This document shows positions 1,594 to 63,485 of a DNA stretch of 64,000 nt, in pieces. Within the stretch, counting starts at the first letter, position 1, and the number at the start of each line of letters is the position of its first letter. Source of the stretch: a virus; the IMG/VR virus record IMGVR_UViG_3300029131_000181, one strand, 5' to 3'. The translations under genes were made by a program, and so were the position numbers. The notes under the pieces were generated by a model. It worked only from the letters and a program-made list of their open reading frames with translations. It ran no database searches and was not told the origin of the DNA.

Positions 1594-1621
1594 ATTATAT
1601 GCAATTCGCACAGATGCACAA
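1594..1621 (-). promoter_or_regulatory. motif-class promoter, copy 1
   Basis: Minus strand TTGTGC-ATCTGTGCGAATTGCA-TATAAT (16-nt spacer, GTGCGAA core). Upstream of gene start 1481. Confidence 0.6.
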
Positions 1622-1719
1622 TGTTTTTCTTTCTGGTAATTTATGGTAAGTGTTGTGCAAAAAAATAAGACCACCACCCTTTTTGGGGCAGTGGTCTTGA
1701 TTGCTATTGCTTTTGAAAA

Positions 1720-2169
1720 TCAATCCAGTAGTTTTCCGGCCTTGTATGAGTGGTACAAATAGCTCGGATTACAATAGTAAGTTGCAGTATTAAAATCTGA
1801 GATGTCATCGCTAATGAACGAGGAAAATACATCAATTACATCCTGGACACTAGGAGTGCTAGTACAGTCAAAGATGATGCGCTGGTACACTTTTCCGATA
1901 TCTGTATAAGATGGAACCTTGTAATGGCAGTTAGACACCGTATCATACGTTCCTTCCGGCACAGGAAAAAGCTCACAAATTTCATCGGCAGATTGCTCAA
2001 AGCTCTGGCAGTGAAACACATCCGCTGAGTCGAGAATTGCCTTGACTCCGTTTGTGCCAAGAGCAGAAACCACATCCTTGCGATGATTCCTCGTAACGCG
2101 GCCGATATATTCAATCAGGCTGCAGGTATAAAAGACATCGTTTTTGCTGTAGGTTGCAGTTTCAGTCAT
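1720..2169 (-). CDS. hypothetical protein, translationally coupled partner of the DUF3990-like gene
   Basis: 149-aa ORF whose start overlaps the upstream stop (ATGA at 2166-2169). No motif recognised. Confidence 0.65.
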   Translation of the reverse strand: MTETATYSKNDVFYTCSLIEYIGRVTRNHRKDVVSALGTNGVKAILDSADVFHCQSFEQSADEICELFPVPEGTYDTVSNCHYKVPSYTDIGKVYQRIIFDCTSTPSVQDVIDVFSSFISDDISDFNTATYYCNPSYLYHSYKAGKLLD

Positions 2170-2618
2170 ACTTCAATCGCCTCCTTAAAAGAGAGACATT
2201 TCAAAGCGACTTCCGTGTGAAAGCTGATTTGATGCGTGGGATGCTTGAATTTTGCCAACGCCCAAAAAGCTTCACGGCTAATATCACCGCTTAGAAAGTC
2301 GTTGACGTAGTTCCAAATGGTGTCATCCGCCATGGGTCCTTCCACAATATCATAGTCATGATGTTTGCCCGAACGACATATAGCAATAAAATCAAGCCAC
2401 TCATCACTCATTTCGGGGAATTTCTTAATATTTAGCATAGGAGATTCTGTATATTCAAACACGTTGACAATACCACGAGACCTGCCTTTTTTTGACCAGC
2501 GAGCGGCTTGTTCGTAGTTGCTAGTGCAATAGAATCCCCATGAAAAATCTTTGGCGTACCTTGTTTTTCTGACCTCAGGGTTGCGGACTATTACATCGCT
2601 GCCATGATACAGAACCAT
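2166..2618 (-). CDS. DUF3990-like protein, possible H-Y-E ADP-ribosyltransferase-type fold
   Basis: ORF trimmed to MVLYHGSDVIVRNPE. The N-terminal LYHGS, the FYCTSNYEQA tyrosine segment and VFEYTE fit the DUF3990 signature and an H-Y-E ART pattern. Called from memory, not searched. Confidence 0.6.
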   Translation of the reverse strand: MVLYHGSDVIVRNPEVRKTRYAKDFSWGFYCTSNYEQAARWSKKGRSRGIVNVFEYTESPMLNIKKFPEMSDEWLDFIAICRSGKHHDYDIVEGPMADDTIWNYVNDFLSGDISREAFWALAKFKHPTHQISFHTEVALKCLSFKEAIEV

Positions 2619-2739
2619 TATTATCACTTCCTTGCATATATTATACTTGTTTTTATGTGTTAACACAATCATTTCGTATGATTTTGGTTCCTACGCTTTT
2701 TGCTGAAAGAACCCGAATCAAAGTTTCGTTCTAGGAGTA

Positions 2740-4173
2740 TCAGCTGTTCGATTCACCCGGCAGCCACTGCTGAGGATAAGCGCGAAGCAGATTTTTCGGT
2801 ACGCAGTCATTCAGAGCGGAATTCTCAGCAAGAGCCATATCAATGATGTAGTAATCATTGCCGTTGCGCATTACATCGACGCTCCACTGCCCTGTCAACT
2901 CAATGCGAGGAATAACCTTCTTCAGCTCAGCCAGAACAGTTTGAACGCTTTCGTGGTAACGCTGGTTCAGAATGTCTTCATGCATCTTGTAGACAACATA
3001 ATCATGGCGTTCCTGTGGGCTGCTGACTTTTTTGAATTCGTTCTTCATAACATCGCTGCGCCAATAAGGACTTGCGCCAAGGATTTCCTTTGTATCAAAA
3101 TCCACAAACACGCGATATTCAGTGTGCAGCGGCAAACCGTTGTAGATGGTGGGGTTATTTTCTTTGTCCTTGATGTATTCTCTGACGACCCACTCGTTCG
3201 TGGTGTTCGCGCCGTAGAAGCAGCGATTGTTCAGAGGGGATGCCATCGAGCATGTCAGATGATTCAAAAACAAGAAATACTCGCCCATCTCATTGATTTC
3301 CTTCGGGTTATGGATATGAGCGTTGCGGAATTCGTATTTGGAAGAATACGTGCCCGTTTTGATAAAATAGTCTTCGTATCCATCAAGATGGAAGACTTTC
3401 TGGCAATAACGGTTCACGATTTCCTTTGTAACGGGATTCAACGTCTCGAAACCAAGGCGGGTAAGCTGCAGCATGGTGATAGGTACGCGAAGAATTTTTG
3501 TGTCCGGAACCTTGAAAAATGCGCTGCCGTACAATCCCTCTACCAGAGGAGGAAACCAGAAGCCCATAGAGTTGGGGTTCATCTCAAGCATCTGATAAGT
3601 GAAGTCATCAAGGTCGAGGATGTCAAGACCTTGACGGAACATGTTGTAGTAGAACATTTTTGTGCTGTCGTTCTTTGCATTCTTGTAGCCTGCGTAGTTT
3701 TGAAGCAATTCCTTGTACGACGGCTCAGAAATGTCAATCTTCATCAACTTTCCGGTGAGCTGCGGACGGAGTTCTTCGGGGTAGCGTTTCAACTCCTCGT
3801 TTGTAACCTCTGTCATAAAGTCGCGGTTGGCAGAGTATGTCACATAATAGCCACCGCGTTCCGCGTTGTAGATGTACAGACGCGTTTCAAGCACCAGTTC
3901 TGTGACGATGCGGTCAATGAGCGAATTGAGTTCCGGTGGGAAGTAGACCTTTTTGTCGAGAATTGCTTTGACTGTAGCTGTATCCCACTGGAGCATATTT
4001 TCATGCAGCTCTCCGCTTTCAAGAACCTGTGTCTTATAGACCTCATCAAAGGTTTTGAGGGCATCAGGGTCAGTTTTGAGCATTGCTGCAAGCTCCTCAT
4101 AAGAAAACGGCTTATCTTTCTTATCGGTTAAGATGGCGCTGATTTGTTCAAACATGTCTTTTGTTTCAGTCAT
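2740..4173 (-). CDS. ATP-grasp-fold protein (R2K/CDC123-like clade candidate)
   Basis: 477-aa ORF with RBS AAAAGGAG. Motifs HTEYRVFVDFDTKEILG and QWSVDVMRNGNDYYIIDMALAENS are typical of ATP-grasp C-terminal halves. Confidence 0.6.
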   Translation of the reverse strand: MTETKDMFEQISAILTDKKDKPFSYEELAAMLKTDPDALKTFDEVYKTQVLESGELHENMLQWDTATVKAILDKKVYFPPELNSLIDRIVTELVLETRLYIYNAERGGYYVTYSANRDFMTEVTNEELKRYPEELRPQLTGKLMKIDISEPSYKELLQNYAGYKNAKNDSTKMFYYNMFRQGLDILDLDDFTYQMLEMNPNSMGFWFPPLVEGLYGSAFFKVPDTKILRVPITMLQLTRLGFETLNPVTKEIVNRYCQKVFHLDGYEDYFIKTGTYSSKYEFRNAHIHNPKEINEMGEYFLFLNHLTCSMASPLNNRCFYGANTTNEWVVREYIKDKENNPTIYNGLPLHTEYRVFVDFDTKEILGASPYWRSDVMKNEFKKVSSPQERHDYVVYKMHEDILNQRYHESVQTVLAELKKVIPRIELTGQWSVDVMRNGNDYYIIDMALAENSALNDCVPKNLLRAYPQQWLPGESNS

Positions 4174-4243
4174 TTGTGGTCTCCTTTTCTAAAAAAGCCA
4201 CCGTTTCTGTAGGAAAACAGTGGCAATGTATAAGTGATATGGT

Positions 4244-6473: not shown

Positions 6474-6514
6474 CAAAAAGGGCGGGCTCCCTAAAAACAG
6501 GAAGTCCGCCCTTT
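6474..6514 (-). terminator. leader hairpin + U-run between promoter and RBS
   Basis: Minus strand AAGGGCGG-loop-CCCGCCCTTTTTGT, immediately before the AAGGAG RBS of gene 6448. Confidence 0.6.
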
Positions 6515-6585
6515 AAGCGAAATTGTGAATGTACGAAAGGCATAAAACCCTTTCGATATAGAATGTTATCTATCGTACAATTTTT

Positions 6586-6613
6586 ATTGTAGTCGGTTCG
6601 CACAGCTTGTCGA
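6586..6613 (-). promoter_or_regulatory. motif-class promoter, copy 2
   Basis: TCGACA-AGCTGTGCGAACCGAC-TACAAT on the minus strand. Confidence 0.55.
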
Positions 6614-6631: not shown

Positions 6632-7792
6632 TTATGGTTTGCAAATCCCACACGCCGAATACCCTTCCTGGATGAGCTCATCGCGGGGCCCCATATAGTC
6701 GATTCGATTCTTTTGACTCATCGATTCGACTGCAGAGCAATCGGGTTTGTGAAACTTCATAGTGCTCGTGTTCAGAACGTATGTCTCGTCTATGACAAGT
6801 GAAGCTTTGTCCTGTTCATCCTTGGAATCTGCAGCACTACCGGCTTCAATCCGATTTTCATCATGATATTCACCGGAAGTGAAACTTACCTCTTTGCCAT
6901 CCGAGGTGCAGTAAATATCACCCAGCAGGTCTGTGCGATAAACCTCGACACCTTTGTTTTGCAACTTGTCGAGTGTTTCCTGATGTGGATGACCGTAACT
7001 GTTCCCTGTGCCACAAGAAATCACAGCATATGTTGGATTTACCGCATCCAGAAAAGCCTCTGAGGTAGATGTACTTGAGCCATGATGCCCTACTTTCAGA
7101 ACTGTTGACTGAATGTCTTGTCCCGATGCAAGTATCACGTTTTCCGCTTCCTGTTCCGCATCTCCGGTAAAGAGGAACGAGGTGTCTCCATAGACAATAC
7201 GCAAAACAATCGAAGTATTGTTCGTGTCATCGGGAACAGAATTAACACCAACTATCGTGAATTCTGCTTTCCCTAGAGTATAAGTGTCTCCCACATCCGG
7301 TATCGTGATGCCTCCGCCTTTCTGTTCCGCGTGGCTTGCAAAGTCCCGAAATGCTTTGCTGTCGTATTCTGTCACAGGGCATAGAGTCATGTCCGCAGTG
7401 ACGGCCTCAAAGGCACCGGACAAGCCGCCGATGTGGTCTTCGTGCGCGTGAGTCCCAACGACATAATCCAGGTGCCCATCGGTTTCACGCTGCATAACAG
7501 AATATAAGAGGTTAGAATCATCGACATTACCGCCATCAATAAGCATTGAGTGGCCGTCGCAGGTGATAAGGGCGGAATCCGCCTGCCCTACGTCTATAAA
7601 GTGAATGGTAAAGCTGCCGTCCACCGAACCGCCAGCCGTCTGTTCACTGCTTGCAGTGCTTTCTGAGACGACCCCGGTGCTGGATGGACTTTCCGATATT
7701 ATCGGATTCTGACCGCAGCCGGTGAAGCTGAGTGCAAGGAGCGTAGCGATGATTGCCGCCGTGCTCCGGAATAGATTGTTTTTGAGTTTCAT
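6632..7792 (-). CDS. MBL-fold metallo-hydrolase lipoprotein (ComEC C-terminal-domain-like)
   Basis: Lipobox LALSFTGCGQ. HFIDVGQADSALI..GTHAHEDHIGG..GHHGS metallo-beta-lactamase motifs. C-terminal Cys/His cluster HKPDCSAV..CGICKP. Confidence 0.9.
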   Translation of the reverse strand: MKLKNNLFRSTAAIIATLLALSFTGCGQNPIISESPSSTGVVSESTASSEQTAGGSVDGSFTIHFIDVGQADSALITCDGHSMLIDGGNVDDSNLLYSVMQRETDGHLDYVVGTHAHEDHIGGLSGAFEAVTADMTLCPVTEYDSKAFRDFASHAEQKGGGITIPDVGDTYTLGKAEFTIVGVNSVPDDTNNTSIVLRIVYGDTSFLFTGDAEQEAENVILASGQDIQSTVLKVGHHGSSTSTSEAFLDAVNPTYAVISCGTGNSYGHPHQETLDKLQNKGVEVYRTDLLGDIYCTSDGKEVSFTSGEYHDENRIEAGSAADSKDEQDKASLVIDETYVLNTSTMKFHKPDCSAVESMSQKNRIDYMGPRDELIQEGYSACGICKP

Positions 7793-7809: not shown

Positions 7810-7850
7810 CAAAAAAAGCGGACCTACCCCGCTATGGGATAAGTCCGCTT
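7810..7850 (-). terminator. leader hairpin + U-run between promoter and RBS
   Basis: Minus strand AAGCGGAC-loop-GTCCGCTTTTTTTGTTGAAAGGAG, followed by ATG 7792. Confidence 0.65.
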
Positions 7851-7901
7851 AAAATACAGATTGTGAATCCTACTGATTTTTAGTATCTGTTCACATTTTA
7901 T

Positions 7902-7929
7902 ATTGTACGGCGTTCGTATATTTTGGCAA
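7902..7929 (-). promoter_or_regulatory. motif-class promoter, copy 3 (degenerate core)
   Basis: TTGCCA-AAATATACGAACGCCG-TACAAT. Confidence 0.45.
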
Positions 7930-14577: not shown

Positions 14578-14760
14578 CGGACTTCCAACTTTTCACGGGT
14601 TGCCCCGTTACTCAGTATGGATTTCTGCTTCATAGAGCGAGCTTACCGCAAGCCGCAGCTCTTGATAGAGGCTCGCTCTCCACAGACTTTAAGATTCGGT
14701 CGTCCTGACCGTACTGTTCGCCTGTGGTTATGAGGCGGCTGGCGTAGCCAGCATGTCCAT
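14578..14760 (-). ncRNA. TnpB omega RNA / right-end region (extent approximate)
   Basis: GC-rich nested hairpins overlapping and following the tnpB 3' end (GAGAGCGAGCC...GGCTCGCTCTA, CGGGGCAACCCG). By analogy to characterised TnpB loci. Confidence 0.5.
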
Positions 14761-15991: not shown

Positions 15992-16019
15992 ATTATATCT
16001 GATTCGCACAGATGTGCAA
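15992..16019 (-). promoter_or_regulatory. motif-class promoter, copy 4
   Basis: TTGCAC-ATCTGTGCGAATCAGA-TATAAT. Now separated from the helicase gene by the tnpB element. Confidence 0.6.
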
Positions 16020-48673: not shown

Positions 48674-49064
48674 CGCTAACATCGTATTGGATGTATTGCA
48701 AAACCGAGAAAACTTTGTGAAGGAATCCGCGATGATATGGAAGCTATGCGAAACAGAGCAAGCAAAAGGCTATATTTCCACGCTATCCTTCGCAAATATT
48801 ATGTATATTCTCCGAAAAGAACTCACTTCCGATAAAATCGAAGAAGTATATCACAAACTGTGTTTGATTTTTGAATTTGCTGATTTCAGTTCTTCTATTC
48901 TTTCAAAAGCTGTTGAAATGAACTGGAAGGATTTTGAAGATGCAGTTCAAAGTGCTACTGCAGAACAAATTCATGCCGATTATATTATTACAAGAAACGT
49001 TCGTGATTTCACAAGAAGCAAAGTAGTCGCATTTACTCCGACAGAACTTCTAATGAGAATCTGA
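48657..49064 (+). CDS. PIN-domain (VapC-like) toxin
   Basis: LLIDANIVLD, DFEDAVQ and ITRNVRDF provide the PIN acidic residues. Confidence 0.85.
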   Translation: MTLLIDANIVLDVLQNRENFVKESAMIWKLCETEQAKGYISTLSFANIMYILRKELTSDKIEEVYHKLCLIFEFADFSSSILSKAVEMNWKDFEDAVQSATAEQIHADYIITRNVRDFTRSKVVAFTPTELLMRI

Positions 49065-52320: not shown

Positions 52321-53000
52321 TCATTGGGGATTCACTATCGGCGTTGCTGTTCTTGCTTGTGGGTCAATGGAATAAGTGGCGTCAATGCATACCGTATTGC
52401 TCCCTGTGTCTTTTCTCACAAAAACTGGCATTACAATTTCTGTGATGGATGTTGGGTCATTGCCATTCTCTGCATAGGTTTCGGCATATTCCTGCCAACG
52501 GATATCCACGTAGGCATTAGAATGTGGTTCCAGCAATGTTGTTCCTCCCGGGGTACACTCAAAGCCATTGATGGAGCCTTTATCCAGAATGACATCGATA
52601 CGGTCGTTGGTTTTGTTTTCGTAGTAGGCTTTTGCCGTATAGCCCATGAAACTATCAGAATAAAATCCGCAAACGACCATGCTGCAGGCATTATTGTCGA
52701 ACAGCACAATATCCGTGGGCTGAATCTCGTGTTTTGGTTCTGTCGCGTTCTCTTCACCTTTCGGATAAATCACAAAGTCATCATCGACAGGGTCATCACG
52801 ATTCGACACATCCCATTCTGCTTCATCATAGACATCGATGTGAAGTTTGACGGTATCGATGTCTTGCGGTTTCACTCCATAGATTTCCAGTCCTGCTTTA
52901 TCCCACGAAACGACCTCGGTGGTTTTCACTCCTGGTCCAATTTCCGGGAACCAACTGGTATCTGCCGGGATTCCATAAAATTTGTGCGTAGGGCACACCG
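52321..53000 (-). pseudogene. lipoprotein gene, C-terminal part (split by the iscB element)
   Basis: Aligns with residues ~175-393 of paralog 55365-56444 (VVYPKGEENATEPKHE.QPTD, GFECTPG/GFECFPE). Confidence 0.85.
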
Positions 53001-53106
53001 TCTACAGTCGTTTGCGACTTAGGCGGTGAGGAATGCGCTAACCAAGATTTGATTTGAGGTAAACTTAGTTAACGCAAATACCCTGCTACTCCTTTCTTTG
53101 AATGAT

Positions 53107-54504
53107 TTAAGATACTTTTTCCCATGCGGGATGTATGGAATCTGCTGCTTTTACAATTTTGAGTTTTTTAAGGCTCGCGGATTTTTGACCGTTTTTTGCG
53201 GGTGCTTTGAATTCTACATTTACGGCACCCTTTTTATTGGTATGAGTGCCATGCACAATGAGAACTTTTCCGTTGAGAGAGACTAAATCACCCGGATTAA
53301 GGTTTACCTTTTTGCGTAATAGAGCGCGATGCCCTGCGTATGTCCTCTTGCCACGATATTTGTGCAGGTTTTCCGAATCCTTTTTATGGCTGCGGCTGAT
53401 TCTACCGTTGAAGAGTTTTTTTCCGGTAGCTATTTCTCCTGTACGAATGTCAATGTAGCGAGAATCATAAAACTTTTCAAGGATGCGATTATTACGCCTT
53501 ACCTTTTCATAATGTTCAAACGTACAGCGGCAGTTTGGATGAAACTCGCCCATTGCATATGCATCATTATTATGACTCTTTTCAAGATGAAGCGCGATAC
53601 GTTTTTCTTTTGTCATTGCGCCATAAGTGACGGTGACAAAATCTTTTCCAAAAGCAGCATAGAGTTCATTGACAATTTGCCACCTAACGGTGTTCATAAA
53701 AGCCGCACCGGAAAGGTCGGCAAACTTTACATTTTCTCCGAAGCCATAAAGCTTACCGCTTTTTTGGTGATTGGCAGGCGTATGGCACTTTTCGCATACC
53801 GTTAGAAGTTCGTCCAGACTGTTGCCGTGACGACCTTTCCAGTAGAACATATGATGCATATGTAAAATCGCACCTTCTGTAGCTTTACGCCCACAAACCT
53901 TACAGACATAGTTATCGCGGTAAAATACCGCTTCCCGCAAGGTTGCCAAGTTGTAGCGGGGACCTTTCTGGTAGTCTACACCTTCCGGTTTTGATTCGCC
54001 TTTCTGGATGGCTTGCAGCAACATTGTGTCGAAAGAACCAACCTCAACCGTTGCATGAGTAATGGGCATTACCGCACAATACATCTTAACAACGTTGACA
54101 TTGAGTTCTTTCTTATGTCTCAAAGATGGAGCAAGCCAACTCTCGCCGCGTTTGCGATTATCGAAACGCGGTTTACGGTAGCGCAGTCTGTTTCTTCGGG
54201 AACGACGCATCTTGCGACAATCATCGTGATGTTCCTTCTCATCCTGTAATGTATCATACTGCGCAGATACATACTCGTGAGATTGACTTTTCACACTGAT
54301 GCCGATGTAGTTGTAGCCAACATCCTCACAGATTTCGATGGGTTGTGTGTTTGTTTTGCTGTCATACAGCAGCTGGATGGTAAAAGGATGATGCTTAACG
54401 ATTTTTGCTTTTCCGTCTTTCAAGAGGCGGCGTACCTTGCCAAGACGGAAGGTAGGCATTAAGCGTTCACCACTGTTGCTGAGAACGCAAACGCAAGTGC
54501 TCAT
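53107..54504 (-). CDS. iscB: IscB RNA-guided nuclease
   Basis: N-terminal PLMP-type motif (GERLMP), RuvC-I (EDVGYNYIGISV), arginine-rich bridge helix (RRSRRNRLRYRKPRFDNR), HNH (CKVCG..HMHH..N..CEKCH), RuvC-II/III (EKSHNNDAYAM) and a C-terminal beta-rich domain. Confidence 0.9.
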   Translation of the reverse strand: MSTCVCVLSNSGERLMPTFRLGKVRRLLKDGKAKIVKHHPFTIQLLYDSKTNTQPIEICEDVGYNYIGISVKSQSHEYVSAQYDTLQDEKEHHDDCRKMRRSRRNRLRYRKPRFDNRKRGESWLAPSLRHKKELNVNVVKMYCAVMPITHATVEVGSFDTMLLQAIQKGESKPEGVDYQKGPRYNLATLREAVFYRDNYVCKVCGRKATEGAILHMHHMFYWKGRHGNSLDELLTVCEKCHTPANHQKSGKLYGFGENVKFADLSGAAFMNTVRWQIVNELYAAFGKDFVTVTYGAMTKEKRIALHLEKSHNNDAYAMGEFHPNCRCTFEHYEKVRRNNRILEKFYDSRYIDIRTGEIATGKKLFNGRISRSHKKDSENLHKYRGKRTYAGHRALLRKKVNLNPGDLVSLNGKVLIVHGTHTNKKGAVNVEFKAPAKNGQKSASLKKLKIVKAADSIHPAWEKVS

Positions 54505-54853
54505 GCAAGATACTCCTTTCGTTAAATAGTAATGAAACTATAAGTCAGGGCTTGCGCCCCGTGGTCCACTTCGCCAATGTTATGCACTGTTTTAGCCTTT
54601 CGGCATGGCTTACGCACTTCTCCTACCCTTAGAGATGTTTAACGTAATATGTATCAACGGCTTGCACCATTGACACATACGCTGCCCGCAGAGCCCGACA
54701 CTTGTGGAGCATATCGGGGTGCCTATATTATTAGTACACAACGTAGTTTTCCCCACTGCCGGAGCAATGGGCTTAGGCTAATCAACTGGGCTTACAGGTT
54801 GCCCCGCAAGCCCCGTCTATAACCGGTGAACCGGTTTAGGCGGGGTTGTTGAC
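54505..54853 (-). ncRNA. IscB omega RNA (HEARO-type) upstream of iscB
   Basis: ~350 nt, ORF-free and GC-rich between the left end and the iscB RBS. Multiple stems with GCAA/GAAA loops (GGGGCGCAAGCCC, GCCGAAAGGC). Confidence 0.7.
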
Positions 54854-55220
54854 TCAAGGACGAGCTGCTTGTGATAGCGCAAAGAGTTTTGTCATCCGTT
54901 TTATTTTGGAAATCAACGGTCCAGTAGTAGCCATAGCTGTCATCATAACCCACGTTCTGCAAGATGATGGTACAGGTATCGTTGTCGGCAATCGTCTGTG
55001 GCTGGAAACTCTCATCGAACTGGATGTCGGGTTCAGCCGTTGCATTATCGGCAGCACTACTTGCAGTACTCGTTGAAGAGTCGCTGGTGCTTTCCTCGGG
55101 GGATGCAGCATCAGATGTAGCTGCACTGCTGGCAGCAGTACTGGTAGTGTTAGAGCTGCTACAGGCGGCCAGGGAAAGGGCAAGCAAAGCCGAAAGTGCT
55201 AATGATACAACCTTTTTCAT
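54854..55220 (-). pseudogene. lipoprotein gene, N-terminal part (split by the iscB element)
   Basis: MKKVVSLALSALLALSLAACSSS lipobox. Colinear with the paralog up to ..NKTDDKTL. Confidence 0.85.
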
Positions 55221-55364
55221 GATTTTCTCCTTTTTTCTTTGTATAAGGCTATTATACATCAAAAGCGCTTCGGCATTTTACTTTTCCAGAACGAAACCTT
55301 TATTTACAAAGTTGCAAACGAAGCCTGGGAAAGTTAATAATTTTAATCGCAGGAGGGCGTCAAA

Positions 55365-56444
55365 TTATTCCGATGTTGTCACGGAATTTGTCTGAGGGTT
55401 AATAGTGAAAGTCTCATCTACATAGATGTCCCGAGTGCTGGAATTGTTTATAACGATTGGCATCACCATTTTGGTGACAGAGGTGGGGTCTTTACCGTTG
55501 GCCTCATAAGTATCTAAATAATCGTAATAGTAGATGTCTACATAGGCATTAGTGTGCGCATCAATTCCCATTGTATCTGTTTCAGGGAAGCACTCAAAGC
55601 CATTTATGGAACCTCCACTTCTAAAGGCAAACATGATTTCTTTATCCGTCTTGTTTTCTATGTAAGCTTTGGCCGTATAACCGTGTAGGCCGTTGGGGTC
55701 AAATCCACAAATCATCAGGGCGCAAGCGTCATTGTCGGCCAGTACGAGGTCTGTGGGTTGGGTTTCATGCTTTGGCTCGGTTGCGTTTTCTTCCCCTTTT
55801 GGATAAACCACGAAATCGTCATCAACAAAGTCATGCCGTGGGATAACATCATAATCTAATTCGTTATAGACATCGAGATAAAAACTTACCGTATTGATAT
55901 CCTGCGGATTGATGTTATAAATTTTAAGCCCGGAACTTTCCCAATGATGAATCTCCGTTTCCTCTTGACCAGGTTCAACACTCGTAAGCCAAAGGCTCGC
56001 ACCCACGCCATTCAATGTGCAGTCATCAAACGAGTAACCGAGTTTTTTATCTGATGTCTTATTCTTGAAATAAAGCTTCCAATAATAGCCGTAATCATCA
56101 TCGTAACCAACGCTCTGCAAGATAATGGTGCATTCTTCATTATCAACAAGTGTCTGTGCCTGGAAATCATTATCGTATGTAATTTTGGGTTCGGGGGACG
56201 GCGTAGGTAAATCGCTGCCTGTGCCGTTCCACACCCTTTCATATGTTTTGCCGTCTTCTGTAGTATATGTCTCTCCTACTTTAATCCCGTCAGGGCTGTA
56301 ATCTTGCGTGCTATTGGAAGTGCTATTTGACGAAGCACTTGACTTGGATTCACTTGAGGCTGCAGCAGAACTATCTGCCTTGCCACAGGCAGCCAACGAG
56401 AGGACGAGCAAAGTCGAAAGTGCTAATGATACAACCTTTTTCAT
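55365..56444 (-). CDS. lipoprotein (intact paralog)
   Basis: Trimmed to MKKVVSLALSTLLVLSLAACGK (AAAAGGAG RBS). Ser-rich linker followed by two related beta-rich halves. Confidence 0.8.
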   Translation of the reverse strand: MKKVVSLALSTLLVLSLAACGKADSSAAASSESKSSASSNSTSNSTQDYSPDGIKVGETYTTEDGKTYERVWNGTGSDLPTPSPEPKITYDNDFQAQTLVDNEECTIILQSVGYDDDYGYYWKLYFKNKTSDKKLGYSFDDCTLNGVGASLWLTSVEPGQEETEIHHWESSGLKIYNINPQDINTVSFYLDVYNELDYDVIPRHDFVDDDFVVYPKGEENATEPKHETQPTDLVLADNDACALMICGFDPNGLHGYTAKAYIENKTDKEIMFAFRSGGSINGFECFPETDTMGIDAHTNAYVDIYYYDYLDTYEANGKDPTSVTKMVMPIVINNSSTRDIYVDETFTINPQTNSVTTSE

Positions 56445-56964
56445 AGTGTTCTCCTTTTTTCTGTTTGTCAGAGCCATTATACACCAAAAGCACTTTGACT
56501 TATTTATTTTGGGAATATTTATCGCCAATTTGAGCGGATTGCACAAATAGCAAGAAGAAAATCAGTGCATATATGCTTCGACATTTTCCTTTCCCCTCTG
56601 CATTTTCCAGAACGAAACTTTTAATGCAGGCTTTCCCAAACGAAACTTTTGGGAGTTGTGATTTGAACTTGACAGCATTTGCGGCAGCTGAGATTTTGCT
56701 ATTCGCCTGTTCCGATTGTCTCACCACAGATACGAAGCAGCGCATTTCGCTTTTGTGAGATACATCTCATATTTGGAAAGGCTGCGACAAAATTCTGAGG
56801 TTTCAGCGGCTCGCTTGCGACATTTTTCCAACTTTTTGGGCAGCAAAAAAGCCCTACCAGAATGGTAGAGTCTTTGCATGTTTTCTTTCGGTCATACGAG
56901 TAGGAAGCGTCATTTATCCGATATTCTTTCGCGCAAAAAAATGAACTTGCTTCGAGGTGAAGCG

Positions 56965-57027
56965 TAGCAAGTGCTTAGCAAGTTTTTAGCAAGTTCGTAG
57001 CAAGTATGCAACAAGCTCATGACAAGT
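56965..57027. repeat. 6 x 11-bp phased repeat TAGCAAGTnnn
   Basis: Units start at 56965, 56976, 56987, 56998, 57009 and 57020. The last two are degenerate (CAACAAGC, TGACAAGT). Confidence 0.8.
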
Positions 57028-57111
57028 ACAATGTCTACTTTTCCGTAGCAAAAAGAAAAGCCACCAAACGATTTTACTCGCTTGGCGGCTTAGCTATATT
57101 CCTATACTGTT

Positions 57112-60100
57112 TTATCCAAATAACTCATCCAGCTTTTCGCTCAACGTCCCATCCTTTGCATAAGGCAATGCATCGCACATACGAAAGTTATACTGCTTTC
57201 CGTTATGCTCCTCAGAGAACCCAAGAATATAGTTGGTTGCAATGCGATAAATAATTTCGGACGGAGCCAGACCGTAGACCTGCTTTTCAAAGATGTGTTC
57301 GAGCCGCTCCTTGGAGTTCGGGAACGCAGCTTTCATGCCTTCGCTCTGGTACAGACGCTTCACGATTTCGGTAATGTACAGGCCCGATTTCATGTACAGG
57401 TCAATAAAGGTCTTGTCCGGGTCATTAAAGCATCCGGGATTTTCTTCTTCCAAAAGCGATACCATCTTTGCCACGGTTGCTTTCGGGGTAAAGATTTGGT
57501 TCGTGCGCTGCGGCGGAATGTAGTCGAAGATGTCCTTTTCGTTCGCCGGGTCAAAATAGTTTGCCAGTTCACGCTTTAACCGCAGGAACTCTTTGATGGA
57601 ATCATCAAACACGACTTCATCAAACAGCTTCCCGTCAAAGTGCTTCGTTTCGCCTGTGGCGGTATCCTTGTAATCACCGCCATCGCGCAGGAAACGGAAC
57701 TGCTCCAGCGTGATGCTGGTGACTTCTTGGAAAACTTCATCGGGAACGATTTGGTCGAAGTTGGCAAGAGTGGTATCCTCTGTGCCATAGGCCATCAGAA
57801 ATGACGGTATCGTGCGGGCAAAACCGCGTAGATGGTCGCGGATGGTATCTTCCACATCGTTCTTTTTGCGTTCCTCGATTTGTGTCTCATAGCTGCGGAC
57901 AGTCTCTTTGGCGGCATCTTCCACGAAGCTGCTGACCGTATCATTCAAAGCTGTTTTCAGCTTTTCAGTAGCCTCTGCCTTTTTCTGGTCGAATTCCTGA
58001 TTGATTTTTGCCTGTTCGTGGGGCGCAGCAGCAGCCAACTGCTCATGGCGTTCTTTTTCGATTTGGTTGGTTTCGATACGATAGTCGCCGTAAGTCCGCG
58101 CCACCAAACGGTCCGCATCCTCGCCCAGCTTCTTCTCTACACGCTTGGCATCCGATGCCTTAATTTCCGAGTCATAATTGGAGGTGGCAGCAGCCACGAT
58201 GGGTTTAACAGCCTGCGCCTTGAAAGCCTCCTGCAACGCTTCCAGCGCCTTATCCTTGGGCTGGTTGTCAACGGCGACTTTATCAATAGCCTGCGTGACC
58301 TGCTCGCTGACAGTCTCATAGATTTTATCGCCAAAAATATCATCGGCCAAACCGATAACATAGCCCTCATCTACTTCGACATCGCCGTTTTCATCAACAT
58401 GGACGCGGTCCAAATCTTCTTTCTTGACTTCCTGCTTTTTCGGTTCGTCCACAGGGGTGAACTTTGTAATAATGTTCACAACCGCCTGCGGAGCACCGAA
58501 GATGTTGGAAATGTTCTGGAACAGATAATTGGACATAAATCCGCGATTCACAACTTCTGTGGAGCGAATCTTTCGCGGAATAGAAAGTACCTTTTCGGCA
58601 TCCAGTTCCACCATTTCGCCGTCTTCATCCTCGCCGATGACCGGGAAGAAGTTCAGCAGTTCCTTGATGTGCTTTTTGCGGGTTTCGGTATCACCGCGAC
58701 CATCGGAAGTGCTGGCATACAGGTCGTTCGCGAACTCCTCAAAAATCATAAGAGTTCGCGCAGGGTCGAAGTCGAAGATATAAGCATTCTCCTTGCGGTA
58801 GAACTTGCCTTTGTCGTGGAACAAGCACGGATTCTGCGCACGGAACGCCGCCTGCATATACAGGGATGCACTCTTGATGCTGCTCAGCATCAGCACAGCA
58901 GTCCATTCTGGAATCGTAACGCCCGTGGTGAGCTGTCCGACAGACAGTGTAATTGTCTTGTCGTTCTGGGCGATAGCCTCGGTCACGCTGTCAAACGCTT
59001 TCTTGGCAGAATCATCATCGTTCAATCTACCGTCACCCACTGCCGCGACGACCTTGTAATCCTTGAAAACAGGATGGTTGTTCAGCTTGCGGGCTAGAGC
59101 CTTGGCGCTGTCCACACGGTTCAGCAGCCAAAGCGTATGCTTTAATTCATCGCGTAATTCCGGTGTGGAGAACGGGAACTTAGTCTGTGTAGTCAGCGCA
59201 TCAAGGAACTTGTCCACAGCGCTGTCATGCACAAAGTTTCCGGCCTGATTGACTGCAAAAAACTCATTTAGGTCAAACGCCCATTCTTCTGTCTCGCCGT
59301 TGATTTCAATGCCCTGCTTCAGTTCATCCCGAACGACCTCGGACATCTGATAGGTGAACATATTGAGCTGCGGCAGATTCGCGTAGGGATTCTGCTCGCT
59401 CTGGTCACCCTGCCAATCGCGTTTTTTCTTCTGCTCGTCGGCATAGGTCCAGTTATAGATGGCGTCCTCTTTGAATTTTTCGCTGGCAATGGCCTTAAAC
59501 GGCGTGCCGGACAGATGCAGCGTAAAGTTGCGGTCAATATGGTCGAACGCCACATCCGTCTTGTAGGTATCTACGCCCTCGTGGGCTTCGTCAATAATCA
59601 GAACATCCCAATGAATGTCATTGACTTCTTTCAGCTTTTCAAATTCACCGCCAAAGTAAATGGAGCCTTTGAGGTCCTGCAAGCTGACGAACTCGATGCA
59701 CTTGTAGTCGTCGTTGTTCAGCATATCCAGATACTGATTGCGGCTCACAACAAAAGGCTTCCCCTGCAGGGAGCTGGTATCGCTCACAAACAGATACCCG
59801 GAATCGGGACCGAGGAACTTCTCGTAGTCGGAATACCACGAGTTTGCAATCGCAGGGCGGTTCGTCACGATAAGGACCGTGTCTGCGTCCATCTGTTTGC
59901 AAAGCTCATAGGCCGTAAGTGTTTTGCCGAAGCGCGGCTTTGCGTTCCAGAGGTATTCACCCTTGGTATGCAGGCGGCTGTAATTCAGCGTTTTCTCTAC
60001 CGCATCCTCCTGCTCCTCACGCAGATTATACGGGGTTGCGGCGGTCAGCGATTGCAAAATACCGCGATTCGCACGGAAATCATAGAAGTGGTTGCGGGAA

Positions 60101-60408
60101 ACAGGCCCCGTCACATGGAACCATTCGTTCTTGGGGTCGTTCTCAATGTTCAGCTTGCGCAGATAGCGGTGGAAATCTTTATCGGTAAATGTATCGCCGG
60201 AGCCATCCTCGAATGTAGCATTGCCGCGCCATTCTTCTTTGTATTCCACATCGGCAGTATGGGTCTGCTGGCTCAATCGCTTGTCTACATCCTGCTCGGT
60301 GTAGCCGATTTTCGTCCAACCGTTATGGCGGGCAATCTCAGGAGTGGTATAGGCATAAATCATCGGAACAACGCGGTCCGTTGTTTTGATGACGATTTTA
60401 GTGCTCAT
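57112..60408 (-). CDS. T5orf172/GIY-YIG-like + SF2 helicase + methyltransferase-N-terminal-like fusion protein
   Basis: N-terminal MIYAYTTPEIARHNGWTKIGYTEQDVDKRLSQQ. Helicase motifs PRFGKTLTAYE and LIIDEAHEG. C-terminal NQIFTPKATVAKMVSLL..FIDLYMKSGLYITEI resembles MTase motifs X/I with no NPPY. Confidence 0.8.
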   Translation of the reverse strand: MSTKIVIKTTDRVVPMIYAYTTPEIARHNGWTKIGYTEQDVDKRLSQQTHTADVEYKEEWRGNATFEDGSGDTFTDKDFHRYLRKLNIENDPKNEWFHVTGPVSRNHFYDFRANRGILQSLTAATPYNLREEQEDAVEKTLNYSRLHTKGEYLWNAKPRFGKTLTAYELCKQMDADTVLIVTNRPAIANSWYSDYEKFLGPDSGYLFVSDTSSLQGKPFVVSRNQYLDMLNNDDYKCIEFVSLQDLKGSIYFGGEFEKLKEVNDIHWDVLIIDEAHEGVDTYKTDVAFDHIDRNFTLHLSGTPFKAIASEKFKEDAIYNWTYADEQKKKRDWQGDQSEQNPYANLPQLNMFTYQMSEVVRDELKQGIEINGETEEWAFDLNEFFAVNQAGNFVHDSAVDKFLDALTTQTKFPFSTPELRDELKHTLWLLNRVDSAKALARKLNNHPVFKDYKVVAAVGDGRLNDDDSAKKAFDSVTEAIAQNDKTITLSVGQLTTGVTIPEWTAVLMLSSIKSASLYMQAAFRAQNPCLFHDKGKFYRKENAYIFDFDPARTLMIFEEFANDLYASTSDGRGDTETRKKHIKELLNFFPVIGEDEDGEMVELDAEKVLSIPRKIRSTEVVNRGFMSNYLFQNISNIFGAPQAVVNIITKFTPVDEPKKQEVKKEDLDRVHVDENGDVEVDEGYVIGLADDIFGDKIYETVSEQVTQAIDKVAVDNQPKDKALEALQEAFKAQAVKPIVAAATSNYDSEIKASDAKRVEKKLGEDADRLVARTYGDYRIETNQIEKERHEQLAAAAPHEQAKINQEFDQKKAEATEKLKTALNDTVSSFVEDAAKETVRSYETQIEERKKNDVEDTIRDHLRGFARTIPSFLMAYGTEDTTLANFDQIVPDEVFQEVTSITLEQFRFLRDGGDYKDTATGETKHFDGKLFDEVVFDDSIKEFLRLKRELANYFDPANEKDIFDYIPPQRTNQIFTPKATVAKMVSLLEEENPGCFNDPDKTFIDLYMKSGLYITEIVKRLYQSEGMKAAFPNSKERLEHIFEKQVYGLAPSEIIYRIATNYILGFSEEHNGKQYNFRMCDALPYAKDGTLSEKLDELFG

Positions 60409-60409
60409 A

Positions 60410-61438
60410 TTATGCCATCTCCTTTACATGAGATTCGATGAAGTCGATTTCCTGCTGTGAAAGACCATACTTCTTGTATAGTTGCTGGTCAATGTCGCGG
60501 ATGGAAGCCGACCAGTTAATGTCAGAGTTGGGGGTGAAATCTTGTAAAGGAACATTCTTCCATGCAGAAATCGATGTGTGCTGCGTAACTTTTAATGTCC
60601 CAAGCATTGCACGGCAAAACTTTGTCTTTATATATTTCACAACACGCTCTGCTTCATCAGAAGTTTCAAATCGTCCCATGCTGATGAATGTCTGTGTAAA
60701 TCCTACATTCGGGCCTTCAACATGAGGAGGATAAATTGCTTCACCAAATTTACCAATTCCGGTTGCTTCTGGCATGACCGCTTTGTAGTAATTCAAATTG
60801 GTTTTATTGTCTATATATTCTCGTTTAATGTACTTATAAACACGCGCATTATTTACTCGCCCAAGGATTGACACATATTCGCCATTAGCTGGTTTTTGAG
60901 AGTAGAACACTTCTGGAATAGAATCAAAGACATTGGTTTTTACTTCATATTCATTTCCCTTACTGAGTTTTGCCTTTAGTTGCGGATTTTCGTCATGCAT
61001 CAACTGTGTAAATTTATAAGCCACTGGCGAATACACTATTGTGCTAAAAGCAATAAAATCTTCCGCATGAAGTATCTTTTTTGCAATGCCGTTGAGTTCT
61101 GGTTCCTTAAAAAAGTGCTCTATAGGTCCGAAATCTTTTCGCTTGTCACGATAGGTAACTGCGACACCGCCTTTAATATCTGTGTTCGGGAAAATGCTTG
61201 CACTAAGCGGTCTATAGTACAAGACTTTATAATGTGGGTCAGAAAGCATTTTTCTATTCCACTTTTTATCGGTATCACCAGCATCGAACAAAAAACGTGC
61301 CGGATGAATCATTTCGACTACCGTTGCCACTTCGAAGCCAGATTCCAAGAAATAATTATAAACAGAAGGAGCCTTTGTATTATCACCAATACCCGTATCT
61401 TGATACGGAGGGTTGCCAATTGCATAATCGAACTTCAT
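60410..61438 (-). CDS. Eco57I-type N6-adenine methyltransferase catalytic/C-terminal half
   Basis: Begins MKFDYAIGNPPYQ (motif IV at the extreme N-terminus). Own RBS AAAGGAG 12 nt upstream. Confidence 0.8.
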   Translation of the reverse strand: MKFDYAIGNPPYQDTGIGDNTKAPSVYNYFLESGFEVATVVEMIHPARFLFDAGDTDKKWNRKMLSDPHYKVLYYRPLSASIFPNTDIKGGVAVTYRDKRKDFGPIEHFFKEPELNGIAKKILHAEDFIAFSTIVYSPVAYKFTQLMHDENPQLKAKLSKGNEYEVKTNVFDSIPEVFYSQKPANGEYVSILGRVNNARVYKYIKREYIDNKTNLNYYKAVMPEATGIGKFGEAIYPPHVEGPNVGFTQTFISMGRFETSDEAERVVKYIKTKFCRAMLGTLKVTQHTSISAWKNVPLQDFTPNSDINWSASIRDIDQQLYKKYGLSQQEIDFIESHVKEMA

Positions 61439-61442
61439 ATCG

Positions 61443-62438
61443 TCACTTTTCTCCTTTCATTTGGTTGTAAGAAATTGTCCGCATAGCACGCCAATCACGG
61501 ATTTTACATTCGTATTTCTTATTTTGCTTAGCCGCCTCATCGAACAGTGTTTCCTGTTCAAAATCACTTGCAAACAGGGATAGCTGCTCGTAGTCGTCTG
61601 ATATGTACAGTTCTTTGCCCGGAATCGTCCCTTTTAGGCCGTCCATCTGCCATATGTTCCAGCAGATTACATTGGCAATCTGGTTCAGTTCCTTGGCAGT
61701 CGGCTCCCGCTGCCATCGCTCCTGCATATAGTCCACGAAGGTCATCAGCAGGTTGATACGGGCAACAAGCAGGTTGTCACCCTGATATTCGTAGCCGTAG
61801 GTACTTTCAAAGGCTCGCCGCGTCCATTTCAGCCAGTCAGCCTCATTATTGGTATTCTCGTTTACGACCCGCAGCTTTCTGTCCAGAATCCCAATTCTGT
61901 TTTCAATCGGAAGTTCTTCGCCGGTAGCGGCATCATAGCGGGATACCAAATAAGGGGCCTCGCCGCAGGTGATTTCCAGCCGCCGAGAATCAACATACCG
62001 CTGCCAATCCCGTTCTTTCTCAAAGTAAACAGGCTCTTTCGTTGGCTCCCAGTGTTCACCGTTCAGCGTATTAAATACGTTCTCGCGTCCAAACCAATCG
62101 TCATCGCATTTATTGTTCATATAGCAGACGACCCAAGAGGGCGTAAAGACCTCGGCTTTGGATTTCGTTCTTGCCGCCTGTTCTTCTTCCGCTTTCAAAA
62201 TGCGCGGCTGGATAAGATTGGCATATACCCCGGAAATCAGCTCCGGCGTGATTTGATTATCCTGCCGATAGCCATCGCCGTATCGTTCATAAGTATTTGT
62301 TGCCCAGATTATATTTTCACCTGTCGTCTTATCTTCCAGCAGAAACCGCATTGCCGTTCTGACCGGATAAGAATACAGGTCAATCAGTTTGCCCAGATGT
62401 GCCACCCCCGCGCAGCGCAGGAAGCAGCCAGAACCCAT
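61443..62438 (-). CDS. methyltransferase N-terminal-half-like protein (degenerate motif I)
   Basis: AEVFTPSWVVCYMNN (motif X-like) and LEITCGEAPYLVSRYD in place of the usual D/EPxCGxGxFL. Start uncertain (62438 or 62351). Confidence 0.6.
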   Translation of the reverse strand: MGSGCFLRCAGVAHLGKLIDLYSYPVRTAMRFLLEDKTTGENIIWATNTYERYGDGYRQDNQITPELISGVYANLIQPRILKAEEEQAARTKSKAEVFTPSWVVCYMNNKCDDDWFGRENVFNTLNGEHWEPTKEPVYFEKERDWQRYVDSRRLEITCGEAPYLVSRYDAATGEELPIENRIGILDRKLRVVNENTNNEADWLKWTRRAFESTYGYEYQGDNLLVARINLLMTFVDYMQERWQREPTAKELNQIANVICWNIWQMDGLKGTIPGKELYISDDYEQLSLFASDFEQETLFDEAAKQNKKYECKIRDWRAMRTISYNQMKGEK

Positions 62439-62648
62439 CCTTACGGAGTTCTTCTCCGTAAGGAAAGGGACGTCCCTTTCGCGCTGATTGTTATTTTTGC
62501 AAACGTTTCTTGCTATTTTATATGGCAGCCTTTCTCTTTAAGCTGCATTTCTGTTATTTGATATTTGCTTTTTATTGCTGTGCAGTTTCAAGCAGGTATC
62601 AAGCTCTTCGTTGAGATTGTATCGGCTGTGGTTCTTGAACTTGAAAAT

Positions 62649-62677
62649 ATTATAGCATATAGCACCGTTTCTCTCAA
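62649..62677 (-). promoter_or_regulatory. extended -10 promoter of the methyltransferase/helicase operon
   Basis: Minus strand TTGAGA-N17-TATAAT preceded by TGC. Confidence 0.55.
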
Positions 62678-62695
62678 CGCTTGTTTTATCGGCAC

Positions 62696-63421
62696 TCATC
62701 CGCCTTTAACTGTCTCAAACTCCAAAGTAATGGTATCCACGATACAAAAAGCCTGTGACCCGTATGGGGTTCCATCACGATAAGTAGAAAACGTATCACA
62801 GGAAAGTACTCCGCCTTCCAGATACACTTCTTTGACCGGCGTATGTCCTACCACTTGCAGATATTCGCCGCCGCGATACAAACGTTTTGCATTCTGATTT
62901 GGAGACAGCTGCGGGCGATACCAGATAGGAGAATCTGTTGCCCACATTGTTTCACAGCTCATTTGGTTGATAGCTTTGACAGCCGCGAGAACATTTTTTC
63001 GGTTCTGTGGTGCTACCCGGAGCTGAACAAAGAGATTTGCAAGGCCGCCGTGCATGAAAAGTGTTTTGTCAATTTTGTGGATATATGCAAGCTGACTTTT
63101 CTTTGGCAAGGCATTTGTCAACTTTTTAATTTCTTGACACACGAGTCCTCTCTTTTCCGGATGGAATCCGGTTTCCGGCTCTCCCCAAATGTAGCTCAGG
63201 TCATGGTTCCCGTAGCACCAGAGAGTATCTGGATGTTCCTTGGCAAACGTGATTGCGGTTTCATAGGTCTCCAGATACTGCGCATCATCATGTACCCCGA
63301 AATCATCTGCCAGGTCCATAAGACAGATAGCTTTGTCTGCAATGCCTTTTTTCATGATGGTATTTGCCTGCGCAAACATCCAGGGTTTCAAATGGCAATC
63401 TGGAATGACTAAGACCTTCAT
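62696..63421 (-). CDS. calcineurin-like metallophosphoesterase
   Basis: MKVLVIPDCHLKPW (DxH), LMDLADDFG (GDxxD-like), GNHD and FMHGG motifs. Confidence 0.85.
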   Translation of the reverse strand: MKVLVIPDCHLKPWMFAQANTIMKKGIADKAICLMDLADDFGVHDDAQYLETYETAITFAKEHPDTLWCYGNHDLSYIWGEPETGFHPEKRGLVCQEIKKLTNALPKKSQLAYIHKIDKTLFMHGGLANLFVQLRVAPQNRKNVLAAVKAINQMSCETMWATDSPIWYRPQLSPNQNAKRLYRGGEYLQVVGHTPVKEVYLEGGVLSCDTFSTYRDGTPYGSQAFCIVDTITLEFETVKGG

Positions 63422-63457
63422 GGCTCTTCACCTCTCTTTTTTGTGTTTACTATTTAG

Positions 63458-63485
63458 ATTATATACGATTCGCACCGAACGTCGA
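63458..63485 (-). promoter_or_regulatory. motif-class promoter, copy 18
   Basis: TCGACG-TTCGGTGCGAATCGTA-TATAAT. Confidence 0.55.

Follow-up and report, generated by a model that had tools for sequence, protein, structure and literature searches.

What calls for a conserved block of sequence between the -35 and -10 elements of a promoter, when the same block recurs in gap after gap along one mobile element? The question is raised by IMG/VR virus record IMGVR_UViG_3300029131_000181, of which we analyzed a stretch of 64,000 nucleotides (nt), hereafter the window. Judged from its composition and relatives, it probably belongs to a Hodor-type conjugative megaplasmid of gut Bacillota, ∼250–390 kb in size. 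A first-pass annotation had listed 18 copies of a promoter-like motif, in which a -35-like hexamer, a 16-nt spacer, and a -10-like hexamer enclose the core GTGCGAA, and had attributed the core to an element-encoded repressor, activator, or sigma-appropriating protein. On the basis of its conservation and setting, we conclude that the feature is probably a promoter-embedded regulator site, with a qut-like architecture in ∼40% of the copies. Strong terminators, a second -10-like hexamer coupled to them, and a leader RNA family, all missed by the first-pass annotation, point to antitermination, which was not among the options it offered, at least as strongly as to repression.

All 18 listed copies were reproduced at their coordinates on the minus strand, each as hexamer, 16 nt, and hexamer, and GTGCGAA was exact at spacer positions 5–11 in 14 of them, with one or two mismatches in the remaining four (Table 1). 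The bare heptamer was only mildly enriched in the window (18 found versus 10.5 ± 3.1 expected); the minus strand has 15 of the 18 occurrences, 14 of them in promoter context. It is the composite motif that is exceptional. When the motif was modeled as a 28-nt weight matrix and hits of at least 12 bits were counted, the window gave 19 hits, none of them on the plus strand, whereas random sequences generated by a first-order Markov model with the same dinucleotide make-up averaged 0.57. Leave-one-out scores of the copies were 15 to 37 bits, and the 19th copy (20964–20991) is absent from the earlier list. The copies are thus a real and confirmed observation, 19 per window. By our own gene calls all 19 are intergenic and occupy 16 of the 41 gaps that measure 40 nt or more; intergenic DNA makes up 14% of the window. 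An automatically called open reading frame of 161 amino acids (aa) that overlaps copy 30305 was not conserved in relatives and looks spurious.

The hexamers bore out the overall promoter layout described before, but several are weaker than had been claimed (TTTTTC, TCGACA, and TTAACC at -35; TACCAT, TACAAG, and GATAAT at -10), and copy 22053 has no T at -7. The GTGCGAA core stood as well, but the conserved block proved to be longer, T-G-T-G-C-G-A-A-t-t-G-C-a, extending into the -10 element. Ordinary TGnTATAAT-type promoters do exist at the plus-strand genes and at some other cassettes, as had been reported. No motif was found in any gap of the ∼10 kb of minus-strand genes at 52930–62695 (HNH endonuclease, T5orf172/ResIII helicase, Eco57I-like), unlike the rest of the window.

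Matrix hits of at least 16 bits were collected from 112 related IMG/VR loci totaling 957 kb. These loci contained 282 copies, or ∼1 per 3.4 kb, which is the density of the window. In 111 of the 112 loci all copies occupied one strand, both strands being used in a single locus, and copies on one relative contig were more than 100 kb apart. The strand bias and the intergenic restriction hold both in the window and in the 957 kb of relatives. The copies of the relatives were reduced to 112 distinct promoters differing by more than 20% over 160 nt, and a profile was taken over this set. At the -35 element, T1, T2, and G3 were present in 112, 106, and 109 promoters, respectively, and C4 in 73 (TTGC over TTGA); at the -10 element, A24 (A-11) and T28 (T-7) were present in 112 and 109. 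The core bases T12, G13, C14, G15, and A16 were each found in 109 to 112 promoters, followed by A17 (96), G20 (97), and C21 (86), and spacer positions 5, 6, and 9 were near random. Because invariant bases stand beside random ones, specific bases must be under selection, and common descent or gene conversion alone does not explain the pattern; on this evidence the core is under strong position-specific selection. The promoter of the operon that encodes triple helix-turn-helix (HTH) proteins was identical at 28 of 28 positions in lineages whose downstream protein is 75–82% identical, and the same core was present on a 349-kb contig of 44.9% GC, perhaps a member of the other Hodor group, whose XRE protein is 39–41% identical to that of the window.

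If the -10 hexamer is numbered -12 to -7, the core falls at -25/-24 to -18, with TGCGA at about -23 to -19, and it is asymmetric. T10 to A24 can be read as a partial palindrome, TGTGC-GAATT-GCAtA, in which the left half and the central CGAA are ∼100% conserved and the right half 63–87%. The TTG, A-11, and T-7 counts and the 16-nt spacer make the promoters sigma-A-type look-alikes, as had been proposed, the resemblance being weak in a few window copies (16982 and 22053). Motif position 36 is a purine in 97 of the 112 promoters, which is no more than suggestive of a transcription start ∼7 nt after the -10 element. The extra spacer element appears best explained by an element-encoded factor. That earlier proposal gains from the finding of a selected extra element, but two forms of it conflict with the geometry. 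MerR-type activators need an overlong spacer of 19–20 nt with a palindromic site, and a spacer activator of this type does not fit the 16-nt spacer and the asymmetric site found here. In the T4 MotA/AsiA system an activator box near -30 replaces the -35 element; sigma appropriation of that type is unlikely, as the -35 TTG is kept, not replaced, in essentially all copies. The upstream elements also did not match the consensus sequences of sigma-H, sigma-E, or sigma-I.

A strong intrinsic terminator (hairpin plus U-tract) was present within 160 nt after the promoter and before the first gene in 47 of the 112 promoters (42%), with the hairpin ends clustered ∼55–60 nt and ∼93–105 nt past the -10 element. 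Our census of the window gave 23 intergenic minus-strand terminators; in 11 or 12 of them the end is followed, 7–95 nt on, by a start codon, and no motif promoter intervenes. The terminator at 38068–38092 (minus strand) is 18 nt ahead of the helicase gene (35855–38050), leaving no room for a promoter, and the route to this gene from the promoter at 38392 crosses two terminators. The route from the promoter at 30305 to the DUF4379-methylase operon crosses three. At 7 to 9 window copies the order is terminator and then promoter.

Some of the terminator-bearing leaders form a family, here called A. These RNAs of ∼100 nt comprise a 5' box of 13 invariant nt (UGUACGAUAGAUA), a helix (P1) formed by GUACG and CGUAC, an unpaired AUUCACAAU box, and a terminator whose stem has seven pairs with compensatory changes. 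The leader stands at a fixed distance from the motif promoter in 48 of 50 occurrences and is found in many relative loci, one of which (L197) has four; no Rfam family matched it. A palindrome between the -10 element (TACAAT) and the start region (ATTGTA), weakly supported by an odds ratio of ∼2.4 for position 25 versus 36, belongs to this family, in whose RNA the 5' box pairs with a CGUACAAU farther downstream. Likewise limited to family A (19 of the 112 promoters) is a second near-copy of the core, in direct orientation, at about +1. The leaders of terminator-bearing units are otherwise heterogeneous, and the promoter core is therefore the only cis-element common to all of them.

An association between the terminators and a -10-like hexamer was set as a prediction before it was tested, using the Fisher test on the 112 promoters. 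The sequence TANNNT was present at motif positions 37–42 (about +2 to +7) in 25 of 47 promoters with a terminator versus 1 of 65 without one (odds ratio 73, p = 5e-11) and, with family A excluded, in 9 of 27 versus 1 of 65 (p = 4e-5); these p-values are optimistic, since paralogous leaders were counted and features are shared by descent, for which the exclusion of family A is a partial correction. The hexamers, carried by 26 of the 112 promoters in all, were TACGAT (16), TAAGAT (5), AACGAT (2), TAGACT, TAAAGT, and TAAGCT, and several unrelated leader types have one at the same position. The -10-like pause hexamer of lambda is AACGAT.

This combination of elements has a precedent. Antitermination by AlpA or Q needs a binding element in the promoter and a -10-like hexamer in the initially transcribed region, where the hexamer holds sigma and pauses the polymerase near the start, with a terminator downstream (PMC9371919). 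In PalpB a single HTH binds the element (ABE), GGGACG, a non-palindromic sequence that occupies -25 to -20 in the spacer between the two promoter hexamers, and the -10-like hexamer, CACGAT, covers -1 to +5 (PMC9371919). The promoters of the plasmid look competent unaided, with a good -35 TTG and a -10 TAnAAT, and the Q- and AlpA-dependent promoters likewise do. With a confidence somewhat short of even, we favor the interpretation that a plasmid protein docks on the core and lets the polymerase read through terminators, as Q and AlpA do. Such antitermination would account for the position and asymmetry of the core, the competent promoters, the terminators, the coupled hexamer, and the unrelated leaders; that the core is bound by a protein, that the plasmid encodes it, and that it antiterminates are what we infer from these signals. 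The protein would bind the asymmetric (T)GTGCGAA at about -25 to -18, with ttGCa weakly continuing into the -10 element, at sigma-A-type promoters (TTGC-16 nt-TAcAAT) that head co-oriented, modular cassettes of accessory and anti-defense genes. The polymerase would be held just past the start by the -10-like hexamer at about +2 to +7, where the factor would join it, and the modified polymerase would ignore the strong terminators between promoter and first gene and between genes. Without the factor only RNAs of 55–110 nt would be made and each cassette would be insulated, so that only transcripts begun at core-bearing promoters would be licensed. Core promoters lacking pause element and terminator could be bound by the same factor, with read-through not needed. 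A wider version, in which transcription is licensed genome-wide by a Q/AlpA-like antiterminator of a new family, possibly a triple Mor-type HTH protein, we consider rather unlikely.

Several points weigh against antitermination. The core is kept in 58% of the promoters without a proximal terminator or hexamer, and antitermination therefore cannot be its whole function. No Pfam hit to a Q- or AlpA-like antiterminator was obtained among the proteins scanned, which represent part of the plasmid only; the start site and the pause of these promoters are deduced from sequence; and the p-values of the coupling are optimistic, as stated above. To our knowledge, Q/AlpA-type systems have one or a few loading sites per replicon and occur only in Proteobacteria and their phages; a Gram-positive plasmid with dozens of such sites would have no precedent. 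In plasmids and prophages the common solution is a global repressor with repeated operators.

The core may instead be the operator of such a repressor, encoded by the plasmid and comparable to KorA/KorB (IncP) or MrpR, a possibility that we consider nearly as probable as antitermination, though likewise short of even. The cassettes would then be silent in an established host and fire together on entry (zygotic induction), the repressor being made from one such promoter. A single site does recur in promoter after promoter of the replicon, within the stretch that polymerase covers; the partial palindrome, its right half overlapping the -10 element, would explain the fixed register; HTH genes lie behind or beside motif promoters (954–1481, 446–964, and 42224–42667, with XRE genes by copy 30305 and in locus L243); the cargo is anti-defense-like (AcrVA2-like, Apyc1-like, NADAR, orphan methylases); and MrpR with its element SPBRE is a precedent (PMC10516654). 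Repression also explains the core in terminator-free promoters. Its difficulties are that conservation across the palindrome is strongly asymmetric, the right half reaching only 63–87%, that the strong terminators directly ahead of the ribosome-binding site (RBS) in 42% of units and the coupled hexamer are left unexplained, and that the XRE gene of the window is probably truncated and that of the 349-kb relative has no motif promoter beside it. Antitermination and repression are not exclusive, and one factor could do both. That the promoter-leader-terminator units are small RNA genes (∼55 and ∼100 nt), with the downstream genes transcribed by leakage and the core forming part of a strong, duplicated small RNA promoter, is improbable. 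Two units in the window are self-contained, with a second motif promoter after them (17088 to 17008 and 48314 to 48183), and in the family-A RNAs the 5' box is invariant and both the helix and the unpaired box are conserved, but most terminators end 7–35 nt ahead of an RBS and start codon with no other promoter available, the 58% of motif promoters that lack a terminator lead directly into genes, and the downstream genes are mutually unrelated.

Recombination could offer another origin for the motif, as a portable terminator/promoter cassette like the PeSLs (PMC4122927) without a dedicated binding factor, whose copies would stay alike because they mediate the shuffling of accessory genes. Promoters often come directly after the terminator of the upstream gene, homology between relatives often ends at the motif, and pairwise junctions cluster at its edges. 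One relative (L238, 825–852) agrees with the window on the XRE side and through the -35 half of copy 30305 and diverges after GTGCGAATT at window position 30314, past which the -10 element, the leader, and the downstream cassette all differ; this is a recombination junction inside the motif. Homology breakpoints fell near the motif in 21 of 93 cases versus 5.4 expected for random positions, but against intergenic DNA (40 intergenic breakpoints) ∼13 were expected and the excess was not significant. The junction scan is moreover biased, as every copy shares the motif, and descent or gene conversion would conserve all positions alike, whereas five core bases are invariant and their neighbors random. 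We therefore regard recombination as the main basis of the motif as highly improbable; shuffling in the manner of the PeSLs may plausibly occur as a by-product. Least probable of all is that the core belongs to the recognition sequence of an alternative or plasmid-encoded sigma factor or of a sigma-appropriation complex. The triple-HTH proteins have weak matches to sigma-70 region 4, and the -35 element favors TTGC over TTGA, but the canonical TTG and TAnAAT are kept at 16-nt spacing, the center of the core is ∼11 bp from that of the -10 element and thus too close for a -35 element, and the candidate proteins have no sigma region 2.

The candidate factors within the window are three triple Mor-type HTH proteins and an XRE-family regulator (Table 1). 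A 317–322-aa relative of the former, with more HTH repeats, is encoded just beyond the window start. An AlphaFold (AF2) model of the 175-aa protein (pLDDT 76) has three modules, each a long helix plus HTH; a fold search with it returned only weak hits, the best being 2lvs, a tandem-HTH CRISPR-repeat-binding protein (E = 0.04), and neither Q nor AlpA structures were among the matches. The motif has T(T/G)GC three times, at positions 1–4, 11–14, and 18–21, and one HTH unit could read each repeat, which is a suggestive coincidence at most. No homologues of the triple-HTH protein below 75% identity were found. The XRE gene is also divergent from the homologous motif copy in L243. Its product has 466 aa in the window versus 626–628 aa in relatives, and an IS200/605 element lies immediately downstream (Y1 transposase, 32049–32462; 443-aa gene, 32481–33812; both plus strand), which suggests that the window gene was probably truncated by its insertion. 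Lineages in which the identity of the XRE protein falls to 39–51% still have an unchanged core.

As to the replicon itself, the window has 46.1% GC and Shine-Dalgarno sites, with nearly all genes on the minus strand. Megablast of 13 kb of it against phage and plasmid collections gave no match; its proteins are sequence-identical on hundreds of human-gut metagenome contigs, the longest of which cluster at 250–323 kb, and the motif pattern retrieves IMG/VR 'viral' contigs of 25–389 kb. Hodor conjugative megaplasmids, described in a 2026 preprint, come from the human gut, measure 211–389 kb with a GC content of 44.6–47.1%, were formerly classified as huge phages, encode giant surface proteins and, frequently, TnpB, and have Bacillota-like genes; their reads were detected in more than 9,000 human-gut and wastewater metagenomes (PMC12934698). 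The window and its relatives match all of these traits, among them GC content, gut origin, 'viral' filing, TnpB genes, and a giant surface protein (>2956 aa, adjoining motif copies), and one paralogue is annotated in an Oscillospiraceae bacterium. Neither the window nor the relative loci read contained Rep_3, ParA/ParB/ParM, sortases, a SecYEG module, VirB4/VirD4, or a MOBH-like relaxase; membership is only probable because the backbone genes lie outside the sequence read. An 18-mer pattern scan of genome contigs returned almost only single chance matches in unrelated phyla, ∼280 chance hits being expected, and its sole genuine match was locus L092. This is DYBQ01000001.1 (223,830 bp), from the GTDB species-representative 'Clostridiales bacterium HRGM_Genome_2451' and 97–98% identical to plasmid loci; on that identity it is a plasmid binned as, or into, a bacterial genome. 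A 477-aa protein (phrog_12834; 2740–4173, minus strand) is matched over its full length, at ∼40% identity, by proteins of megaplasmids (169–193 kb) from Bifidobacterium breve and B. longum, and has partial matches in SPbeta-like Staphylococcus phages and Lactococcus megaplasmids.

The cargo comprises an AcrVA2-like gene, a metallo-beta-lactamase (MBL)-fold gene with a faint Apyc1 (Anti-Pycsar) match, a NADAR gene, three DUF4379 zinc-ribbon proteins, orphan methylases, an EcoRI-type methylase with DUF4238 and GmrSD/HNH, and helicases, and looks like an arsenal of anti-defense and defense genes. Directly after the leader terminator of copy 15992 lies an IS605-type tnpB gene (14728–15837, minus strand; OrfB_IS605, Cas12f1-like TNB domain), which appears to have replaced the original gene of that cassette. 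A PhD/PIN toxin-antitoxin pair (48431–49064, plus strand), divergent from copy 48314, has its own ordinary promoter, TTGCAA-17-TATAAT, at 48375–48403. In the gap between a VWA gene and the next minus-strand gene, positions 43594–43663 (minus strand) match in Rfam the HDV-like self-cleaving ribozyme of Faecalibacterium prausnitzii (60.4 bits, gathering threshold 44).

Table 1. Motif copies, terminators, leader RNAs, candidate factors, and cargo in the 64,000-nt window; hexamers given as about +2 to +7 are -10-like elements in the transcript.
Feature	Position	Strand	Sequence or structure	Setting
Motif copy	1594–1621	-	TTGTGC-16-TATAAT, core GTGCGAA, 37 bits	drives triple-HTH operon 954–1481 / 446–964
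Leader terminator	1503–1539	-		behind copy 1594, 22 nt ahead of start codon
Motif copy	6586–6613	-	family-A leader, TACGAT about +2 to +7	leader terminator 6512–6479
Motif copy	7902–7929	-	core ATACGAA, variant leader	leader terminator 7850–7816, then MBL-fold (Apyc1-like) gene
Motif copy	15992–16019	-	TAAGAT about +2 to +7	leader terminator 15970–15932; IS605 tnpB gene next
Motif copy	16982–17009	-	weak -35 TTTTTC, the U-tract of the preceding terminator	RBS immediately 3'
Motif copy	17088–17115	-	family-A-like leader, terminator 17043–17008	stand-alone short transcription unit ahead of copy 16982
Motif copy	20101–20128	-	core GTGCGAG, family-A-like leader	leader terminator 20053–20017, then DUF4379 gene
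Motif copy	20558–20585	-	no leader terminator	
Motif copy	20964–20991	-	weaker; TTGACT-16-TAGAAT, core ATGCGAT, 18.9 bits	
Motif copy	22053–22080	-	weak; core ATGCGAA, -10 TACAAG	ordinary TGgTATAAT promoter ∼70 nt downstream
Motif copy	30305–30332	-	TAAGAT about +2 to +7	divergent from XRE gene
Terminators after copy 30305 (three)	30280–30254, 30012–29979, 29867–29839	-		before DUF4379-methylase-GmrSD operon
Motif copy	38392–38419	-	TAAAGT about +2 to +7	terminators on both sides: 38476–38429 upstream, 38358–38332 downstream
Motif copy	39125–39152	-	core GTGCGAT, no leader terminator	
Motif copy	41540–41567	-	-10 GACAAT, no leader terminator	ahead of operon with AcrVA2-like gene
Motif copy	42751–42778	-		drives 147-aa triple Mor-type HTH gene
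Motif copy	46260–46287	-	-10 GATAAT	
Motif copy	48147–48174	-		drives flotillin gene; terminator 48211–48183 precedes
Motif copy	48314–48341	-	∼125-nt leader, terminator 48211–48183	stand-alone unit ahead of copy 48147
Motif copy	63458–63485	-		drives metallophosphatase gene
Terminators behind a motif promoter (seven)	1539–1503, 6512–6479, 7850–7816, 15970–15932, 20053–20017, 30280–30254, 38358–38332	-		
Internal terminators	4224–4197, 18886–18842, 23333–23289, 27960–27932, 29867–29839, 38092–38068	-		
Family-A leader RNA	6479–6585	-		ends 7 nt before start codon
Leader family-A/A-like occurrences	6479–6585, 7816–7901, 17008–17087, 20017–20100	-		
Candidate factor	954–1481	-	175 aa, three tandem Mor-type HTH units	
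Candidate factor	446–964	-	172-aa triple Mor-type HTH paralogue	
Candidate factor	42224–42667	-	147-aa triple Mor-type HTH paralogue	
Candidate factor	30569–31969	+	XRE-family regulator	divergent from copy 30305
Ordinary promoters	24170–24197, 31999–32027, 48375–48403		TGnTATAAT type	
Ordinary promoters	23383–23356, 22759–22731	-	TGnTATAAT type	
Cargo	6632–7792	-	MBL-fold	
Cargo	34822–35274	-	NADAR	
Cargo	40017–40904	-	AcrVA2-like	
Cargo	24845–29813	-	methylase-DUF4238-GmrSD/HNH	
Cargo	17284–20180	-	DUF4379	

The regulation of the Hodor class is not described in its 2026 preprint, which makes no mention of promoters, a leading region, or anti-defense genes (PMC12934698), and the motif offers a concrete handle on it. 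With ∼1 marked transcription unit every 3.4 kb, it delimits a regulon of anti-defense and accessory cassettes that extends over the plasmid, and it supplies the exact bases to mutate. If the Q/AlpA-like interpretation is true, promoter-loaded antitermination would extend from single proteobacterial phage late operons to a many-promoter system on a Gram-positive plasmid; if repression is true, the core would be a master switch for zygotic induction of an anti-defense arsenal. Either way, the motif is a sensitive sequence marker for plasmids still filed as phages in viral databases.

Four kinds of known system invite comparison. The bipartite antitermination system conAn of pLS20 combines one RNA element with one protein and is situated where the conjugation operon begins; it shares with the present case a Gram-positive conjugative plasmid, long one-directional gene arrays, and intrinsic terminators that need read-through, but it involves no DNA site recurring in promoter after promoter. 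KorA/KorB operators are the global repressor sites of IncP plasmids. In SPbeta, the 15-bp element SPBRE occurs at ten promoters and is bound by the recombinase-fold repressor MrpR; it was first seen in silico and later shown to be bound by the phage's own regulator (PMC10516654). As in the plasmid, a single large mobile element has the same short sequence at numerous promoters, but neither SPBRE/MrpR nor KorA/KorB has been described with promoter-proximal terminators or a coupled -10-like element, and no recombinase-fold MrpR-like protein was seen here. The PeSLs of T4-like phages are composite terminator/promoter cassettes (PMC4122927) and resemble the present units as stereotyped terminator-plus-promoter arrangements between variable accessory genes at gene-content junctions; they differ in that their promoters follow the T4 early consensus and their spacers have no conserved core, whereas here the element is a plasmid and the breakpoint excess is not secure. 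AlpA of Pseudomonas aeruginosa and the lambdoid Q proteins differ in acting at one site, whereas the plasmid has dozens per replicon, more than half of them without pause element and terminator, in a Gram-positive host. The likeness to them lies in the architecture: a short non-palindromic site between the -35 and -10 elements (ABE at -25 to -20; core here at -25/-24 to -18), a -10-like hexamer at the transcript start (CACGAT at -1 to +5 in PalpB; TACGAT, TAAGAT, or AACGAT at about +2 to +7 here), and an intrinsic terminator downstream, ahead of the regulated genes.

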